Positions 1-61,220 of a stretch of 64,000 bases of DNA are shown here, in pieces. Both the position numbers and the translations under genes were made by a program. Source of the stretch: Candidatus Tayloriibacteriota bacterium (GTDB lineage: Bacteria; Patescibacteriota; Minisyncoccia; Phycocordibacterales; UBA6065); contig JACRJQ010000008.1 in assembly GCA_016215405.1 (NCBI GenBank), forward strand, positions 25,866 to 89,865. The letters run 5' to 3'. Position 1 is the stretch's first letter, and the number at the start of each line of letters is the position of its first letter. Under the pieces are notes generated by a model. That model saw only the letters and a program-made list of their open reading frames with translations. It searched no databases and was not told the origin of the DNA.

Positions 1-1538
1 ACCGGCCTCTCGCGCCTCTCAAGAGGCCTCTGTGGGTCTCTCTGTCCGTCCCTGTGTCCCTCTCTCCGGGCTTCCCCCGTCTGCTCGCGAGACGGGTCGC
101 GCGGGCGGTCTCCGCCGCCCTGAGGCGGTCGCGGCCTCTCAGGCGCTCGCGAAGGCTCGTCACGGCGCGGACGGTCTTCTTGCCTGCGCGGCGCAGGCAA
201 GGATCCTTCGGCGCGCCTCTCGGATTCCGCGGCGGCGCGGTCGAGCTCCTCGCTCGAGGTCTGCTTGCGCACCTGCTCTTCGACGATCGACCGTATCTGG
301 CCGAAATTAGCGCGCGAGCTCTCGACGACCTGCTCTCTGAAAGAGATCGTGGGCTCCGGTATAGGCGGAAGAGTGGTACCCGAGAACGGCTGTGAGCCGA
401 TGCCGTCTATCATGAGGCGCAGATATATCTGGGCGAACCCGAGGTTCACGATGTCTTCGGCGGTGAACTGCGGAGCGAATTCCTTTTCGAGGACCTCCGC
501 GTCGAACGAGCCTACGCGAAAGACGATCATGGTGCCCACGTTTCCGAATACGGCCGCGCGCACCTCCTCCGACATCTGCTCTATATACTGATGGGCTATC
601 GTGAGATTGAGCTTGTACTTCCTGGCCTCTGAAAGGATATCAGCGAAGGACTCGTTGGCGAACGACTGGAACTCGTCGACATAGAGATAGAACTGAGGAA
701 GGCCTCGAAGGACCTTCTCCGAGACGTCTGCGCGCGACATTGCTGCGAGATATATCTTGGTGATGAGCATCGCGCCGAGGAGGTTGGCGTTCGACTCTCC
801 CACGCGCCCTTTGGAGAGGTTCACGATGAGGATCTTCCTCTCGTCCATGAGCTTTCGTATGTCGAACGACGATTTCGGCTGGCCGATGATGTTGCGGATG
901 AGGGGGTTCGACGTGAACTGCCCGATCTTGTTCTGGATCGCAGGGGTCGCCTCGGCCGCGAACCTCTCGGTATATTTCGCGAACTCGTCGACCCAAAAGG
1001 ATTTGACCGCTGGATCGCTCACGTTATCGACCACTCTCTTGCGATAGTTCTTGTCGGAGAGCATCTTATTGACGCCCAAAAGGGTCGCGCCCGGATACTC
1101 GAGGAGGGCGAGAAGCGTGTTCGAGAGGATGTATTCCATTCGCGCCGACCACGCGTCCTCCCAGATCTTCTTGAAAGTCGACATGAGTCCCGAGACGACG
1201 AGATGCCTCTTGTCGTAGCCAACGTCCTCCATCACGTTGAAAGAGATCGGATGCTCGATATCGAACGGGGCGAAATAGAGGACGTCCTTTATGCGGTCCT
1301 CAGGGACGTAGTTGAGGAGGAGTTCAGCGGTCTTGCCGTGAGGGTCGATGAAGCAGAGGCCTTCCCCGCCCTGGATGTCCTGGACTGCCATGTTCTCGAG
1401 GAGGGTCGACTTGCCCATACCCGTCTTACCGATGACGTACATATGGCGCGTCCTATCCTTGGCTTTTATGCCGAATTTTATCCTCTTGTTGCGCGAATCC
1501 GTCTCCGCGAAATATGTGACCTTGTCGTCGCTCGTCAT
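1..1538 (-). CDS. P-loop NTPase of the TraG/TraD/VirD4 (type IV secretion coupling protein) or DUF87/HerA-like family. N-terminal Walker A, and a long Arg/Pro/Glu/Asp-rich low-complexity C-terminal tail. The 3' end of the gene lies beyond window coordinate 1.
   Basis: Translated by hand on the minus strand from ATG at 1538. MTSDDKVTYFAETDSRNKRIKFGIKAKDRTRHMYVIGKTGMGKSTLLENMAVQDIQGGEGLCFIDPHGKTAELL, then ...FYLYVDEFQSFANESFADILSEARKYKLNLTIAHQYIEQM (Walker B DEF followed by the E-A-R-K-Y and AHQ motifs typical of coupling ATPases). There are no stops down to position 1. The codon usage matches the genome. The ORF is absent from the track because its stop codon lies outside the window. Confidence 0.6.
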   Translation of the reverse strand, partial: MTSDDKVTYFAETDSRNKRIKFGIKAKDRTRHMYVIGKTGMGKSTLLENMAVQDIQGGEGLCFIDPHGKTAELLLNYVPEDRIKDVLYFAPFDIEHPISFNVMEDVGYDKRHLVVSGLMSTFKKIWEDAWSARMEYILSNTLLALLEYPGATLLGVNKMLSDKNYRKRVVDNVSDPAVKSFWVDEFAKYTERFAAEATPAIQNKIGQFTSNPLIRNIIGQPKSSFDIRKLMDERKILIVNLSKGRVGESNANLLGAMLITKIYLAAMSRADVSEKVLRGLPQFYLYVDEFQSFANESFADILSEARKYKLNLTIAHQYIEQMSEEVRAAVFGNVGTMIVFRVGSFDAEVLEKEFAPQFTAEDIVNLGFAQIYLRLMIDGIGSQPFSGTTLPPIPEPTISFREQVVESSRANFGQIRSIVEEQVRKQTSSEELDRAAAESERRAEGSLPAPRRQEDRPRRDEPSRAPERPRPPQGGGDRPRDPSREQTGEARREGHRDGQRDPQRPLERRERP

Positions 1539-1627
1539 TCGCCCAATTATGCCATTTTCCCGCCTAGAGATAAAGAAAAGCGGCACGCCAGGGGTAAGCT
1601 GGCGCGCCGCGCGTATAAAACGTCACG

Positions 1628-1846
1628 CTACTGATTGGCCATCGCCATTCGCGACTCCTGGTGGGCGAGCGCATCGTCCGCGAGGATCTGCATCGTCGCA
1701 ACCCTGCCACGGATTCGGGCGCAGCCCCGCTCGAAGTCTTCCCTCATCCAATCCGGCATTCCGGACATGGGTTTCGGGTCTTCGGCGGGAACCGCGGCCT
1801 CTTCCGAGGTATGGGTTTCTTGGCTGGCGGCCTGTGGTGACTTCAT
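1628..1846 (-). CDS. Hypothetical small protein (72 aa) just upstream of, and co-directional with, the TraG-like gene.
   Basis: ORF MKSPQAASQETHTSEEAAVPAEDPKPMSGMPDWMREDFERGCARIRGRVATMQILADDALAHQESRMAMANQ. High GC3 codon usage like neighbouring genes. No homology recognised. Confidence 0.25.
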   Translation of the reverse strand: MKSPQAASQETHTSEEAAVPAEDPKPMSGMPDWMREDFERGCARIRGRVATMQILADDALAHQESRMAMANQ

Positions 1847-2051
1847 GGTATTTCCAACTGCTGTCGAGTGTGCATGTCGTCTCTCTCCGAAAGGATCGAT
1901 CGGCCTCCGGAGAGAGGTCCCGAAAACGCTCGAGACTCCGATATAGTACTCCTCTCCCGCCCTTTGTCTAGGGTGGGTATCCACGAGACGCGATGGAAGG
2001 AAAAACGAAAGCCGTCCTAGGTAAGGACGGCTCGGAAGGGCGCGGCAGGCG

Positions 2052-2426
2052 TCACTTCGCGGGGATGAAAGGCGCGTCGATGCGCGGCCTCTCTGGCATC
2101 CGGCCGAGTCCCGGATAAGGCGACCCTTGAGGCGTCCGTGGACGGGCGAGGAGCTCGCGCTTGCGCGCTTGAGCCTCGCTGTTCCCTTCGACGCATCTCG
2201 TGCAGAGCGTCCGATCGAACTCGTGCTCGCACTTCCATCGCCTGCACTGAGGACACTGGCGCCGAAGGCTCCGGTAATCCTTCTCGATACGGTGAACGAG
2301 CGGGATAAGGAGGATGGGTATCGCCAGAAGGACCGTGCGGTCCCAAAAGTAAGCGAAGGCGATGACAGCGAGGACGAAGAGCACGCAGGAGTGCTTCGTG
2401 AATCGGTTCCAAGGCAGTTTTTTCAT
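2052..2426 (-). CDS. Small membrane protein with a C-terminal Cys-rich zinc ribbon.
   Basis: MKKLPWNRFTKHSCVLFVLAVIAFAYFWDRTVLLAIPILLIPLV (TM helix), then CPQCRRWKCEHEFDRTLCTRC. The codon usage is typical of the genome. Confidence 0.5.
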   Translation of the reverse strand: MKKLPWNRFTKHSCVLFVLAVIAFAYFWDRTVLLAIPILLIPLVHRIEKDYRSLRRQCPQCRRWKCEHEFDRTLCTRCVEGNSEAQARKRELLARPRTPQGSPYPGLGRMPERPRIDAPFIPAK

Positions 2427-2507
2427 GATGTCGGTCTCCGAACAGTGGGTTGGTAGCAAAAAGAGCTAGACTACTATTATATCATGATTAGAGCCTATCC
2501 GCAATAG

Positions 2508-3758
2508 CTAGATCTGCGGCTCGAGCGCGGCGCGGGTGTATCTATTCCCTGCGTTCCAGAGGAGCCACGAGTCGAGGCCCGCGTCGTACGCCGCGCGTAT
2601 CTGATCGCGAACCATCTCGGCCGTATAGGGTACGGGGTAATTATTATCCTGAAGCCACGGACGGATCTTCTTCGGATCGAATGAGGGCTTGGCGTATATC
2701 GCGGGCGTAGAGGTGCCTATGCGGGCGCCAGGCAGGGCGACCCGGGTCGTCGTAGCGACGGCGCGCGCGACCGCCCTGTCCATAGAATATTTGACCACCT
2801 CGTAGACGTGCGCGTTCGGGTCTCCGAGGCCAAGAAAGCTCTTCGGATAGTGGGACGGATAGACCATGGGCGCTATGTAGTGGAAATTCGGCAGCGCCTT
2901 CTCTAGTATCTGACCGATATTGAGGTCATCCTCGTTCGTCGCGGTCATGCCGAAGAGGTCGGCCGAGATGACCATCTTCGATGAGAGCTTGCCCCAGATA
3001 TATTCATAGAACTCGCGCATGACCTCGCTCTTCTCTTTCGATCCCGCCCATGGATAGGAGATATCCCTCATGTCGCCATCCGACGGGAATCGGATGTAAT
3101 CGAAATTTATCTCGTCGAATCCGATGGCGTAGGATTCTTCGGCGATGAGGACCAGATAGTCCCAATGCTCCTTCGCCCCCGCGTCTATCCACGGGATGCC
3201 CTTGTGGTCCCGCCAGACCGTCGACGTCGCGGACGCCTTCTTTACCGCGAGCTCGGGCCTCGCCTTCACCATGAAGGCGTCCTGGAAGGCGGCCACGCGA
3301 CCGATGACATAGATGCCTCGCGCATGAAGCTCGTCTATGAGGTCTTGCATGTCTCTGACAAAGCAGTCCCCTTTCGCGGCGGGTTTCAGAGCTTCCGACT
3401 CGGGCATAAAGGAGATGAATCCGTCATAGGTCTTTATGTCGACCACGACGGAGTTTAGCTCGGTCTCGTCGATGAGCTTCATGAGGTTGTTGCGCAGAGA
3501 CGGCGTAGACGCTACGCAGGAGGTCATGTAGATGCCGCGCACCGCCGAAGGCGTCGCGACGTGGGTCGCCTTTCGTACGTCTATCGCGGGCTCGGGCGCC
3601 GTAGTAGTCGCGACCTCGATCGCCGAGGCTCCGTGATAGGTGAGGTCGGAGAGTGGAGGCACCCCTATATAGAGGAAGGTAAAGGCAAAAACAAAGAGCG
3701 AGGCGAAGCTCACTCCTATCCTCCACGCCCTTACGCTCTCTTTGGTCCTCGCTCTCAA
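2508..3758 (-). CDS. Membrane-anchored putative glycoside hydrolase-like protein (GHL10/DUF187-type TIM barrel).
   Basis: 416 aa. N-terminal TM anchor (GVSFASLFVFAFTFLYIGV). Motifs GIYVIGRVAAFQD, GFDEINFDYIRFP and WLLWNAGN are reminiscent of the YngK/GHL10 family. Confidence 0.45.
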   Translation of the reverse strand: MRARTKESVRAWRIGVSFASLFVFAFTFLYIGVPPLSDLTYHGASAIEVATTTAPEPAIDVRKATHVATPSAVRGIYMTSCVASTPSLRNNLMKLIDETELNSVVVDIKTYDGFISFMPESEALKPAAKGDCFVRDMQDLIDELHARGIYVIGRVAAFQDAFMVKARPELAVKKASATSTVWRDHKGIPWIDAGAKEHWDYLVLIAEESYAIGFDEINFDYIRFPSDGDMRDISYPWAGSKEKSEVMREFYEYIWGKLSSKMVISADLFGMTATNEDDLNIGQILEKALPNFHYIAPMVYPSHYPKSFLGLGDPNAHVYEVVKYSMDRAVARAVATTTRVALPGARIGTSTPAIYAKPSFDPKKIRPWLQDNNYPVPYTAEMVRDQIRAAYDAGLDSWLLWNAGNRYTRAALEPQI

Positions 3759-3770
3759 GAGATTTTCAAA

Positions 3771-3983
3771 TTAAGCCTGTGTTTCCGAGACCGGCGACTT
3801 TTCTACGGGAGCTGGCGCCTCCGCCCTCGCCCTCTGAGGCTCTTTGCCGGAAAGGTAAGAGAACGCCATGACGAGAAGCCCTAAAGCGATATAGAAGACG
3901 TCGTCCCATGCCCTCGGAAAGCCGAGGAACTGAAGGATCAGGACTACGAAGCCGAGCAAGACGAGGATGTTTCTGAATCTCAT
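3771..3983 (-). CDS. Small membrane protein (70 aa).
   Basis: MRFRNILVLLGFVVLILQFLGFPRAWDDVFYIALGLLVMAFSYL. Two predicted TM helices. Genome-typical codons. Confidence 0.4.
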   Translation of the reverse strand: MRFRNILVLLGFVVLILQFLGFPRAWDDVFYIALGLLVMAFSYLSGKEPQRARAEAPAPVEKSPVSETQA

Positions 3984-4021
3984 AGGGATCTTTAAGCGAT
4001 TATTGCCGCTAGTATAGCGCC

Positions 4022-4723
4022 TTACTCCTCGGGCGAAAAGGGTTTCGCCTCCCTCTCGGCGCTCACGATGACGACGAATTCTCCGCGCAGGGTGCTGGGA
4101 TTGTTCTTAAACGACAGAAGGATCTCTTCCGCTGTGCCCGAAAGATAGGATTCGTACATCTTGGTGAGCTCGCGCAGTATCGTCACGTTCTTGCCCGAAC
4201 CCTTAAGCGACTCGAGCGCCTTCTCTATGCGATGCGGCGACTCGTAGAAGATATACGGCCTCTCGCCCGTCCTAATCTCCTCAAAGAGGGTCTGGCGGCC
4301 CTTCTTGTGCGGCAAGAATCCCAAGAAGACGAATTCGTGGAGGGGCCTGCCTGCGACGGATATCGCTGCGGTCAATGCCGAAGGCCCCGGAACGGCGACT
4401 ACCGGCACGTCGGGAAGGCGCGATCTCACTTCCGAGACGAGAAGCATCCCCGGATCCGATATCCCCGGAGTGCCCGCGTCGGTCACGAGCGCGATATCCT
4501 TGCCCGCTTCGAGAAGCTCGATGACGCGGTCCATCTTCGAAAGAGGGCTCTGGGCGTGAAAGCTCTCGGTCGCCGTCCGTATGTCGTATTTGGAGAAGAG
4601 CACCCGGGACGTACGCGTATCCTCGCAGAACACGACGGAAACCTCTTTAAGCACGCGCAAAGCGCGCAAGGTGACGTCCTCGAGGTTTCCTATCGGCGTA
4701 GCGACTATATAGAGAGTAGCCAT
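4022..4723 (-). CDS. rsmI: 16S rRNA (cytidine1402-2'-O)-methyltransferase RsmI.
   Basis: MATLYIVATPIGNLEDVTLRALRVLKEVSVVFCEDTRTSRVL...LVTDAGTPGISDPG. Canonical RsmI/tetrapyrrole-methylase-like motifs. The start was moved to the internal Met at 4723. Confidence 0.9.
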   Translation of the reverse strand: MATLYIVATPIGNLEDVTLRALRVLKEVSVVFCEDTRTSRVLFSKYDIRTATESFHAQSPLSKMDRVIELLEAGKDIALVTDAGTPGISDPGMLLVSEVRSRLPDVPVVAVPGPSALTAAISVAGRPLHEFVFLGFLPHKKGRQTLFEEIRTGERPYIFYESPHRIEKALESLKGSGKNVTILRELTKMYESYLSGTAEEILLSFKNNPSTLRGEFVVIVSAEREAKPFSPEE

Positions 4724-4750
4724 AGCGTATGGGGTAAGTATACTATCAAT

Positions 4751-5959
4751 GTGATAGTAAACCTCCAAAAGCCCGTCGTCTACGTCACGCGCGACATCGA
4801 GCGAGCTTTAGGCATGGAGCCTTCAGGGAGCTACTTCGTCATATCGAACGATACGGCATACGGCAGGAAGGTCCGGGAAGCGTATCCTGACAACGTCCTG
4901 CTCGTCCGCGACCGAGGCGAAACCTCGGTAAAAGATACCGAGGTTTCGCCTCGGTATCTCGATACATACGATCTCCTGCTCATGCCCGAGGTGCAGAGGG
5001 AAATCTCAGACCGCGACGCCGACCTCCTCGTATTCCAGAACACCCCCCGCATCGAAAGGCTCGCCAAAGAGAAGGGCTGGAGCCTCCTCAACCCGTCGGC
5101 CATGCTCTCGCGCGAGGTCGAAGAGAAGGTCTCCCAGGTGGCATGGCTCGGCGAGGACGCCTCTCTCCTGCCCCCTCACCGCATCGCGCTCGCAAAGGAC
5201 GCGAGGTTCGAAGGCGCGAAGTTCGTGCTGCAGTGGAACCACTCACATACAGGAGAAGGCACCTATGTCATAGATTCGGCCGAAGCACTCTCTTCTGTAG
5301 CCTCGAGATTCCCGGATCGAGAATGCCGGATAACGAGATTCGTCGAGGGGCCGGTATTCACCGTGAACTCGGTCGTCGCGGAGGCGATCATCGTCGGAAA
5401 CCCGAGCTATCAGATAACCGGCCTCGCGCCCTTCACCGACCTTCCCTTCTCTACCATAGGCAACGACTGGGACCTTCCCCGCGACGAAGAGTACGCGGCG
5501 GTGAGCGAGGAGGTCCGTAAGATGGCGATCCGTGTCGGAGAGAGGCTCCGGCTCTCGGGCTGGTACGGGCTCTTCGGCATCGACGCCGTCTACGACGAGA
5601 AAGCCGGAAAGACATATCTCCTCGAGATAAACGCGCGCCAGCCCGCCTCGACCACGCTCGAATCGAAGCTCCAGAAGAGCGACTCTATATTCGAAGCCCA
5701 CCTCTCTGCGCTCCTCGGCCTTCCGGCTGCGAGCGGTCCGGAGATACGAGGGGCGCAGATCGTAAAGCGCGTCACCCGAGAGGCTTATTCCATAGACGAA
5801 GCCGCCCTCTCGGATAAGGGCCTCTCCCTCATCGGATACGAGAACACCGAGCACAACAAGGAGATCCTGCGCATCCAATCCGAGAGAGGTATAATGAGAG
5901 CCCACAACAAGCTCAACGACCTAGGGATATCCATAGCATCATGCATCCGCAAGATATAG
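4751..5959 (+). CDS. ATP-grasp domain protein (peptide/amide ligase-like).
   Basis: C-terminal ATP-grasp signature LSGWYGLFGIDAVYDEKAGKTYLLEINARQPAST. The start is uncertain (GTG 4751 or ATG ~4812). The upstream part of the track ORF (4232-4750) overlaps rsmI and is not coding. Confidence 0.7.
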   Translation: MIVNLQKPVVYVTRDIERALGMEPSGSYFVISNDTAYGRKVREAYPDNVLLVRDRGETSVKDTEVSPRYLDTYDLLLMPEVQREISDRDADLLVFQNTPRIERLAKEKGWSLLNPSAMLSREVEEKVSQVAWLGEDASLLPPHRIALAKDARFEGAKFVLQWNHSHTGEGTYVIDSAEALSSVASRFPDRECRITRFVEGPVFTVNSVVAEAIIVGNPSYQITGLAPFTDLPFSTIGNDWDLPRDEEYAAVSEEVRKMAIRVGERLRLSGWYGLFGIDAVYDEKAGKTYLLEINARQPASTTLESKLQKSDSIFEAHLSALLGLPAASGPEIRGAQIVKRVTREAYSIDEAALSDKGLSLIGYENTEHNKEILRIQSERGIMRAHNKLNDLGISIASCIRKI

Positions 5960-58946: not shown

Positions 58947-61220
58947 ATGGCCAAAAAGAAAAAGACCGGCGTCGAAGAGGCGCCGAAATCCGACAGAAAA
59001 TCGAAGGGCGGATTCTTCAAGAACCTCAAAGACGAGACGGTCCAGGGAGTCCTTATGATAGTGTTCTTCGTCCTCGCGATATTCACCTCTCTCGCCATCT
59101 GGGAGAAGGCGGGCATCGTGGGGCATTATACGTATCTCGGACTCTCGTATCTGTTGGGCGTCGGATACTACCTCCTGCCCCTCATATTCGTCGTCCTCGG
59201 CATAACGACGATACGCAACTTCCATCGCCATTTCGACGCCGCGAAGATCTACGGCTCGCTCCTCTTCCTCCTCTCCACCTTAGGCATCATAGAGATCGTC
59301 TCGCCTACCTACGGCGGCTTCATAGGAAAGTGGGTCGCCTTCCCCTTCGTGAGCCTCATCGACGTCTCCGCGTCCCTCGTCGTGCTCTCCGCCCTGGTCA
59401 TCATCTCTATCATCGTGGCGTTCAACGAGGAGCTCGACCTCAAGTCTCTCTTGCGATTCGGTAAGGACGAGGAGGACGAGGACGAAGAGGCCGAGATAGA
59501 GGAGGAGGTGAACATCAGGCTCTCTTTGCCTACCGAAGAGGAGGCCCCTAAAAAGAGGAAGAAGGAACCGGAGGCCGAGCCTGAGAAGACCAAGGAGGAG
59601 AAGAAACCGAAGAAGGACATGAAGGTCTCGACCGGCGTAGAGGACGACGGCAAAGACTTCATCAAGCCTTCGAAAGATACGGACAAGGAGTACACCCCTC
59701 CCCCGCTCTCGCTTCTCGAACGCGACAAAGGCAAGCCCGTCGTAGGAGACGTCAAAGCGAACGCGAACATCATAAAGAGGACCCTTATGAACTTCGGCAT
59801 CGACGTCGAGATGGACGAGGTCTCTATCGGCCCCTCGGTCACCCGCTATGCCCTTAAGCCCGCCGAAGGAGTGAAGCTCGCGCGCATCGTCGGCCTGCAA
59901 AACGACCTCGCCTTGGCCCTCGCCGCCCACCCTTTGCGCATAGAGGCTCCTATCCCTGGCAAATCCCTCGTAGGCATCGAGATACCGAACACGACAAAGA
60001 CGACCGTAGGCCTCGGAACCCTCTTCTCGAACGAGGAGTTCCAGACGTCCGAAAAGCCCCTCCTCGTAGCCATAGGCAAAGGCATCTCGGGCAAATCTCA
60101 CTACGTGAACGTGGCGAAGATGCCCCACCTCCTCATCGCCGGCGCCACGGGATCGGGAAAATCGGTCACTATACACGCCCTTATCGTCTCTCTCCTCTAT
60201 CGATGCTCGCCTGAGAAGCTCAAACTGATCATGATCGACCCGAAAAGAGTCGAACTTACGCTCTATAACAAGATCCCCCACCTCCTCACCCCGGTCATCA
60301 CCGATGCGAAGAAGGCGATCCTGTCCCTCAAATGGGCCGCAAAAGAGATGGATAGGCGCTACAACATCCTCCAAGAGCACGGCGTGCGCGACATAGACTC
60401 GTACCACAAGAACGTATACGAGCCCGCCTCGAAAAAGGTGAAGGTCAAAAAAGACGGCGAAGAGATAGACGCTCCAGGGCCTGATCCGATGCCTTATATA
60501 GTCGTCATCATCGACGAGCTCGCGGATATCATGCAGACCTACCCTCGAGAGCTCGAGGCCGGCATCGTCCGCCTCGCCCAGATGTCTCGAGCCGTGGGCA
60601 TCCACCTCATGCTCTCTACCCAAAGGCCGTCGGTAAACGTCATAACCGGCCTCATCAAGGCGAACATCCCTGCGCGACTGGCTCTCCAAGTGGCGTCCCA
60701 GGTCGACTCCCGCACCATCCTCGACACCGTGGGCGCGGAGAAGCTCCTCGGCGCGGGAGATATGCTCTACCTCGGCGGCGAGATGTCGAAACCTACCCGC
60801 ATCCAGTGCGCGTACATAAGCGAATCGGAAGTGAAGAAAGTCGTGAAATTCCTCGCCGACTCGCATATCGACGAGCTTAACGACGAGATAAACCTCACGG
60901 ACAACGCCGTAAAGAACGACAACGCCATATTCTCCGCGACCCTCGACGATATGGGCGAGGAAGGCGGAGAAGACGACGACGACGATATGTACGAACAGGC
61001 CAAGGCGGTCGTCATGGAAGCCGGAAAGGCCTCGACCTCCTATATCCAGAGGAAGCTGCGCGTCGGATACTCGCGCGCGGCGCGGCTCATGGACCTCCTC
61101 GAAGAACGAGGCGTGATAGGGGCGGCCGACGGCTCCAAGCCTCGACCGGTCGTCCTCGGAGGAGGCGGCTCGTCGGAGACATCGTCGGAAGGAGCGGCGG
61201 AAGAAGAGAAGCCTTTATAA
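58947..61220 (+). CDS. ftsK: DNA translocase FtsK/SpoIIIE.
   Basis: N-terminal TM helices, acidic/Lys linker, motor domain with LIAGATGSGKSV, C-terminal gamma domain (YIQRKLRVGYSRAARLMDLLEERGVIG). Confidence 0.9.
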   Translation: MAKKKKTGVEEAPKSDRKSKGGFFKNLKDETVQGVLMIVFFVLAIFTSLAIWEKAGIVGHYTYLGLSYLLGVGYYLLPLIFVVLGITTIRNFHRHFDAAKIYGSLLFLLSTLGIIEIVSPTYGGFIGKWVAFPFVSLIDVSASLVVLSALVIISIIVAFNEELDLKSLLRFGKDEEDEDEEAEIEEEVNIRLSLPTEEEAPKKRKKEPEAEPEKTKEEKKPKKDMKVSTGVEDDGKDFIKPSKDTDKEYTPPPLSLLERDKGKPVVGDVKANANIIKRTLMNFGIDVEMDEVSIGPSVTRYALKPAEGVKLARIVGLQNDLALALAAHPLRIEAPIPGKSLVGIEIPNTTKTTVGLGTLFSNEEFQTSEKPLLVAIGKGISGKSHYVNVAKMPHLLIAGATGSGKSVTIHALIVSLLYRCSPEKLKLIMIDPKRVELTLYNKIPHLLTPVITDAKKAILSLKWAAKEMDRRYNILQEHGVRDIDSYHKNVYEPASKKVKVKKDGEEIDAPGPDPMPYIVVIIDELADIMQTYPRELEAGIVRLAQMSRAVGIHLMLSTQRPSVNVITGLIKANIPARLALQVASQVDSRTILDTVGAEKLLGAGDMLYLGGEMSKPTRIQCAYISESEVKKVVKFLADSHIDELNDEINLTDNAVKNDNAIFSATLDDMGEEGGEDDDDDMYEQAKAVVMEAGKASTSYIQRKLRVGYSRAARLMDLLEERGVIGAADGSKPRPVVLGGGGSSETSSEGAAEEEKPL

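Follow-up and report, generated by a model that had tools for sequence, protein, structure and literature searches.

An anchor-less relative of conjugative coupling proteins encoded among cell-envelope genes in Paceibacteria

The DNA analysed here, a stretch of 64,000 nucleotides (the window) from the genome of a tiny bacterium of the candidate phyla radiation, Candidatus Taylorbacteria, opens inside a gene for an ATPase resembling conjugative coupling proteins (T4CPs), and this raises the question of whether the gene marks the edge of a mobile element or belongs to the chromosome, and what its product might do. Six-frame translation gave a single long ORF on the minus strand, running from an ATG at 1538 to base 3 and then beyond the window edge, with 512 codons visible. 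The full-length product, P0001, has 640 amino acids, and its residues 1–512 are 100% identical to the window ORF; the start codon maps to MTSDDK, at which the orthologues also begin. In the predicted monomer model the fold starts at about residue 7 and the core of ~430 amino acids has pLDDT values > 90, followed by a disordered Pro/Arg/Glu-rich tail of ~210 amino acids (pLDDT ~45–60). Hydropathy analysis found no TM helix, the Kyte–Doolittle 19-residue mean peaking at 1.19, in agreement with an earlier note on this sequence. That note had also listed Walker A, DPHG, Walker B, EARKY and AHQ motifs, all of which could be located (Table 1); it had assigned them to the N-terminal 260 amino acids, but they span residues 37–317 of the larger folded core. 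Similarly, the low-complexity Arg/Pro/Glu-rich composition that it described for the tail is real, but its length of ~280 amino acids is an overestimate and just 82 residues of the tail lie within the window.

Table 1. Positions of the ATPase gene, its motifs and its upstream neighbours in the window.
Feature	Position (nt)	Strand	Remarks
Anchorless T4CP-like ATPase, CDS	3..1538	-	Residues 1–512 of 640; C-terminus cut by window edge; Pfam matches
Folded ATPase core, aa 1–430	249..1538	-	Nucleotide-binding domain with inserted all-alpha domain
Walker A GKTGMGKS, aa 37–44	1407..1430	-	G37, G40, G42 and K43 invariant
DPHG motif, aa 65–68	1335..1346	-	
All-alpha insertion, aa 108–232	843..1217	-	Conserved IQNKIGQF...RNIIGQ motif; predicted helices
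Walker B YLYVDE (aa 284–289), EARKY (aa 304–308) and AHQ (aa 315–317)	588..689	-	By alignment to TrwB; Walker B 672–689, EARKY 615–629, AHQ 588–596
First 82 aa of tail, aa 431–512	3..248	-	R 27%, P 16%, E 15% in window
Terminator-like hairpin	1580..1610	-	12 pairs (10 G-C) and T-run; between 118-aa ORF and ATPase start
Small co-directional ORF	1628..1984	-	118 aa from GTG, 72 aa from ATG 1845
Small ORF, 124 aa	2052..2426	-	Hydrophobic N-terminal segment and two CxxC pairs (TM/zinc-ribbon); lineage-specific
DUF4015 (putative glycoside-hydrolase-like) membrane protein	2508..3758	-	PF13200 on the identical L001 gene
RsmI-type methyltransferase (TP_methylase)	4022..4768	-	80–81% identical to L002, L004 and L006 genes

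Alignment of 120 sequences showed Walker A, Walker B, EARKY and AHQ to be invariant in the family. In an alignment with TrwB that takes in Walker A, Walker B and the KGRK region, EARKY lies against KGRK, and D288, E304–Y308 and Q317 do not vary in the family; the predicted all-alpha insertion occupies the position of the TrwB all-alpha domain and contains the invariant residues K204 and Q220, and R269 is invariant as well. Judged from sequence, all catalytic residues are in place and none varies.

Three Pfam T4CP families exceeded their gathering scores, by just 2–11 bits: TrwB_AAD_bind (31.9 bits against a cut-off of 20.5, spanning amino acids 26–343), T4SS-DNA_transf (28.4 against 20.1) and TraG-D_C (24 against 22). 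DUF87 was also above its cut-off (27.1 against 23.2) and below TrwB_AAD_bind, so that all four profiles that the earlier note had named as a check gave matches. None of the T4CP equivalog and subfamily models of NCBIfam came near its cut-off (38 against 250 for conju_CD1115; 48 against 366 for SXT_TraD). A sequence search of the PDB returned a sole match, to the Walker A region of TrwB (E 0.007), and structure prediction was therefore needed. The predicted fold resembles those of TrwB, VirB4, DotL and HerA, with TrwB giving the longest low-rmsd structural alignment (345 amino acids at 3.1 Å) and target-normalised TM-scores of 0.61–0.64, against 0.50 for HerA.

The ATPase is 30% identical to T4CPs within Gram-positive-type conjugation loci of two plasmids, one from Bacillus subtilis, where the T4CP gene neighbours TcpD and TcpE, and one from Embleya, where the locus comprises PrgI, an ATPase, the T4CP, a relaxation protein and an NlpC/P60 protein. 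More distant relatives (24–41% identity) were found on plasmids and in Bacillus phages, and all 611 plasmid matches were below 60% identity. The P-loop domain with its motifs and the all-alpha insertion (the latter as predicted) place the protein in the T4CP superfamily, and the missing TM anchor is compatible with membership since a recognised T4CP subfamily lacks one. We conclude, as the earlier note had proposed in calling it TraG/VirD4-like, that the ATPase is a real relative of conjugative T4CPs, without a TM helix and with a disordered C-terminal tail. Two FtsK-related identities were also considered: FtsK/SpoIIIE itself, which was rejected on score (FtsK_SpoIIIE, 12.8 bits against a cut-off of 24), and a replacement for FtsK, which was dismissed since the window has its own complete FtsK (alpha, motor and gamma domains) at 58947–61220.

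A second Patescibacteria paralogue, P0203, is membrane-anchored, and its alignment with the T4CP of the B. subtilis plasmid extends over 746 amino acids and takes in the N-terminal domain. At least two Patescibacteria paralogue groups derive from monoderm conjugative coupling proteins, and the ATPase belongs to one of them: the DUF8128 group keeps the N-terminal membrane/DUF8128 domain, whereas the anchorless group has lost it and ends in the peptide EVPEDVLKKIL. Quick NJ trees gave moderate support of 79–80%, which should not be over-read, and searches of the literature on DUF8128 and on TraG or DNA uptake in Parcubacteria yielded nothing useful. Among anchorless-form relatives the tail ranges from 143 to 314 amino acids; length and composition drift while three short motifs are kept, which a survey of column conservation and C-terminal peptides placed at amino acids ~517–531, 556–576 and 627–639, all beyond the window. 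Helices are predicted inside the disordered tail at residues 563–574 and 631–639. The C-terminal peptide EVPEDVLKK(I/L)L is nearly invariant, with isoleucine in the window's protein, and it was not found outside the ATPase family when sought in the other proteins of the window and of all loci.

The earlier note had remarked on a small co-directional ORF preceding the ATPase. This frame of 118 codons is open, but it matched nothing in Pfam, NCBIfam or PHROG, and none of 85 related loci contains a homologue; the gene calls of the identical contig (locus L001, the window's own sequence) do not include it, it is unlike its positional counterpart in L002, and a terminator-like hairpin separates it from the ATPase. 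From these comparisons it appears lineage-specific at best and outside any conserved unit. Terminator-like sites numbered seven in positions 1–4100, against 2.9 ± 1.7 in shuffled sequence, and a second such hairpin (2033–2009) follows the 124-aa ORF. The latter also had no homologue in the 85 loci, with weak similarity to an ORF of L004 (E 0.012), and upstream ORFs of like make-up were present in 4 of 50 anchorless-form loci (L001, L002, L004 and L007); the 970-bp spacer upstream of the ATPase (1539–2507) is itself lineage-specific. Both small ORFs had been considered as conserved partners by analogy with TraI/TraJ and, because a similar make-up recurs in those four loci only, were rejected as family-wide partners. 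A small TM ORF downstream (42 amino acids in L001) was rejected likewise, since just 5 of 71 loci have one.

Related loci were inspected within ±10 kb, with precomputed Pfam gene tables for five of them; the genome loci of the family were all (80 of 80), judged by record title or close similarity, from Patescibacteria-type metagenome-assembled genomes, one of which is labelled ‘uncultured Gammaproteobacteria’. The earlier note had pointed to a possible mobile-element boundary at the window edge, to an integrated element or DNA-uptake machinery, and to a search beyond coordinate 1 for relaxase, integrase, VirB4 or att sites. Beyond coordinate 1 the identical contig continues with the 42-aa ORF, followed by several glycosyltransferase genes in a row; the window side carries DUF4015, RsmI, an ATP-grasp-like protein, MraY and a Mur ligase. 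The order RsmI/DUF4015 – ATPase – GT4 recurs across Paceibacteria. RsmI and/or DUF4015 lie within 4 kb upstream of the ATPase in 36 of the 42 related loci whose flank reaches 4 kb or more (an RsmI-type gene within 4 kb in 28 of the 42; DUF4015 upstream and co-directional in 27 of the 42), and GT4 lies downstream in 30 of 48. No relaxase, integrase or VirB4 occurred in the Pfam gene tables of the five loci (flank up to 10 kb), and no mobile-element gene was found by Pfam among the ten largest window ORFs. The nearest tRNA is 18.1 kb away, beside the 16S gene, and direct repeats near the ATPase are short and at chance level, with none att-like. Composition, for which the earlier note had also suggested a check, is not atypical: GC (0.589), GC3 (0.779) and codon usage (r 0.89) are the same as those of the window's FtsK, SecD and MraY. 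The ATPase core is ~18 identity points above MraY and RsmI when the same genome pairs are compared. We are therefore confident that the ATPase is a native T4CP paralogue and that no mobile-element boundary lies here. The other outcome that the earlier note had envisaged, a HerA/FtsK-type helicase among chromosomal genes, is half borne out: the neighbours are chromosomal and without mobile hallmarks, but the best match is to neither HerA nor FtsK. In streamlined genomes, synteny may be conserved without any functional link between the ATPase and the cell-envelope genes.

Orphan coupling-protein homologues in Patescibacteria were reported recently (Quinonero-Coronel et al., 2025; PMC12102498). 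According to the passages of that paper available to us, 5713 T4CP homologues occur in 2918 of 3035 Patescibacteria genomes, with VirB4 in 2417; this is about two homologues per genome, nearly all unlinked to a T4SS (148 of the 5713 are near virB4), and exaptation of these orphans is called possible there. The same passages, together with PMC10633639, describe the T4SS as essential for epibiotic life and the T4CP homologue of Southlakia epibionticum as non-essential. The window ATPase is almost certainly one of these 5713 VirD4-type homologues; the available passages mention no anchored/anchorless split, tail or terminal peptide, fixed RsmI-DUF4015-X-GT4 position or conservation above MraY. 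The Southlakia finding may concern the other, anchored paralogue and not the anchorless form.

Our preferred reading, to which as a whole we give a probability of about 0.5, starts from the ATPase as a membrane-anchor-less paralogue of a monoderm T4CP, native and vertically inherited, in a conserved cell-envelope gene block of Paceibacteria (Candidatus Taylorbacteria). By analogy with distant relatives (14–15% identity to TrwB), from which its oligomeric state, substrate and partner are also projected, it is somewhat more likely than not to be a tethered ring translocase. Six subunits would assemble into a ring, hydrolyse ATP where they meet and thread or remodel a polymer, which would be nucleic acid or an unfolded protein. 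With the N-terminal membrane/DUF8128 domain lost, the flexible tail would instead bring the ring to its site of action, where the terminal peptide would dock on a partner. We favour an exapted role of housekeeping type, independent of classical conjugation and possibly of the T4SS altogether, although for a T4SS-independent housekeeping role the odds fall a little short of even.

The strongest alternative, which we regard as possible but distinctly doubtful, is that the ATPase is the working coupling protein of a chromosomal, non-conjugative Patescibacteria T4SS, encoded in trans. Here a soluble ring would dock via its tail peptide on the anchored DUF8128 paralogue or on VirB4/VirB6, and would recruit and energise the export of effector proteins or DNA, or the import of host material. 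Its homology to T4CPs of monoderm conjugation loci agrees with this, as does the fact that no coupling protein can be recognised within the Patescibacteria T4SS clusters themselves (PMC10633639). A long distance between T4CP genes and virB4 is common, according to the available part of PMC12102498, so that missing linkage is compatible with a T4SS role, and at one locus a T4SS_pilin gene lies 7 kb from the anchored paralogue. There are precedents in a TM-less T4CP subfamily, in which a small membrane protein acts as partner (TraI for TraJ of pIP501), and in Glu/Asp-rich T4CP C-terminal domains that bind substrates or adaptors (PMC7434980). Against it, more genomes have T4CP homologues than have VirB4, and Southlakia can do without its homologue but not without the T4SS, both as given in the passages cited above. 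In addition, the precomputed Pfam tables of five loci show no T4SS gene within 10 kb; the anchored paralogue adjoins a sigma-factor-like gene, not T4SS genes, in 19 of 21 loci; and the core, including the all-alpha domain, is unusually well conserved for a receptor of fast-evolving effectors.

It is unlikely, in our estimation, that the anchorless paralogue serves specifically as a housekeeping motor for nucleic-acid import or processing in Paceibacteria. A coupling protein reversed or detached from the T4SS would in that case draw DNA or RNA scavenged from the host into a cell unable to make nucleotides, its C-terminal peptide docking it on an uptake channel (the T4SS pilus base, the DUF8128 paralogue or ComEC). 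That the all-alpha domain and the motifs on the pore side are invariant is what one would expect if the substrate, like nucleic acid, does not change; the reported occurrence of the gene family in more genomes than VirB4 and the scarcity of relaxases, which are largely absent from the Patescibacteria phylum, also fit.

We consider it very improbable that the protein is a HerA-type or defence-type ring ATPase (HerA–NurA end resection, DptH/Dnd-like, or MADS mad8-like immunity) that merely resembles a coupling protein. The DUF87 match, a PADLOC mad8 match (E 1.3e-14, HerA models being weaker), the best Foldseek E-value, which was to Sulfolobus HerA, and the position of some proteobacterial plasmid homologues next to recombinase/transposase or CHAT/TPR genes all lean this way. 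However, T4CP profiles outscore DUF87, the longest low-rmsd structural alignment is with TrwB, and the paralogue is homologous over its full length to a plasmid conjugation T4CP; nor was a nuclease, Sir2, NurA, Dnd or methyltransferase partner gene present in the five inspected loci. Defence genes are expected to be patchily distributed (defence islands), and the fixed chromosomal position and conservation above MraY are the opposite. Finally, that this is the coupling ATPase of a conjugative or integrative element whose boundary falls at the window edge is barely credible: T4CP homology, the distant plasmid and Bacillus phage relatives and the lineage-specific spacer are consistent with it, but the housekeeping flanks on both sides, the conserved synteny, the lack of integrase, relaxase and VirB4, of any tRNA within 18 kb and of att-like direct repeats, the native composition and codon usage, and the low identity of every plasmid match argue against it.

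The practical outcome is negative, in that there is no mobile element at the ATPase locus. At the same time, one of the two Patescibacteria coupling-protein homologues emerges as a distinct anchorless lineage with a disordered leash and a fixed terminal peptide, holding a fixed housekeeping position and evolving more slowly than MraY. The ‘orphan T4CP’ becomes a defined target, with handles in its terminal peptide, its invariant all-alpha motif and its Walker sites, and the question is raised of whether the most abundant of the uncultured bacterial radiations has adapted a conjugation motor to a core function.

Among known systems, the HerA, VirB4 C-terminal domain and DptH ATPases are further in sequence from the window ATPase than are T4CP profiles and plasmid T4CPs; it has no VirB4 N-terminal domain and, in the five loci, no NurA, Sir2 or DUF4297 partner gene. 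With TrwB (R388) and VirD4 (PDB 1e9r and 1gki; Cag-beta, 8dol; DotL, 6sz9) it has in common the nucleotide-binding domain with all-alpha insertion, Walker A and B and the R/K motif, but it is only 14–15% identical and lacks the N-terminal TM domain and any linked relaxase or T4SS. TraJ of pIP501, compared by description only, is likewise a coupling ATPase without a TM domain, recruited in the reviewed model by a small membrane protein, TraI (PMC7434980); TraJ is plasmid-borne, in a 15-gene tra operon beside this partner, whereas the window ATPase has no conserved adjacent membrane partner. The monoderm (MPF-FATA-type) T4CPs, namely the 913-aa DUF87 protein of B. subtilis plasmid CP120602.1 and the 812-aa protein of Embleya NZ_CP108778.1, share a homologous ATPase module (~30% identity, E 3e-33 to 3e-54) and the same Pfam set. 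They carry an N-terminal extension of ~350–400 amino acids, which in the B. subtilis protein aligns with the DUF8128-type domain of P0203, and they lie amid conjugation genes; the window protein begins at the ATPase, its gene has cell-envelope neighbours, and EVPEDVLKKIL closes its long disordered tail.

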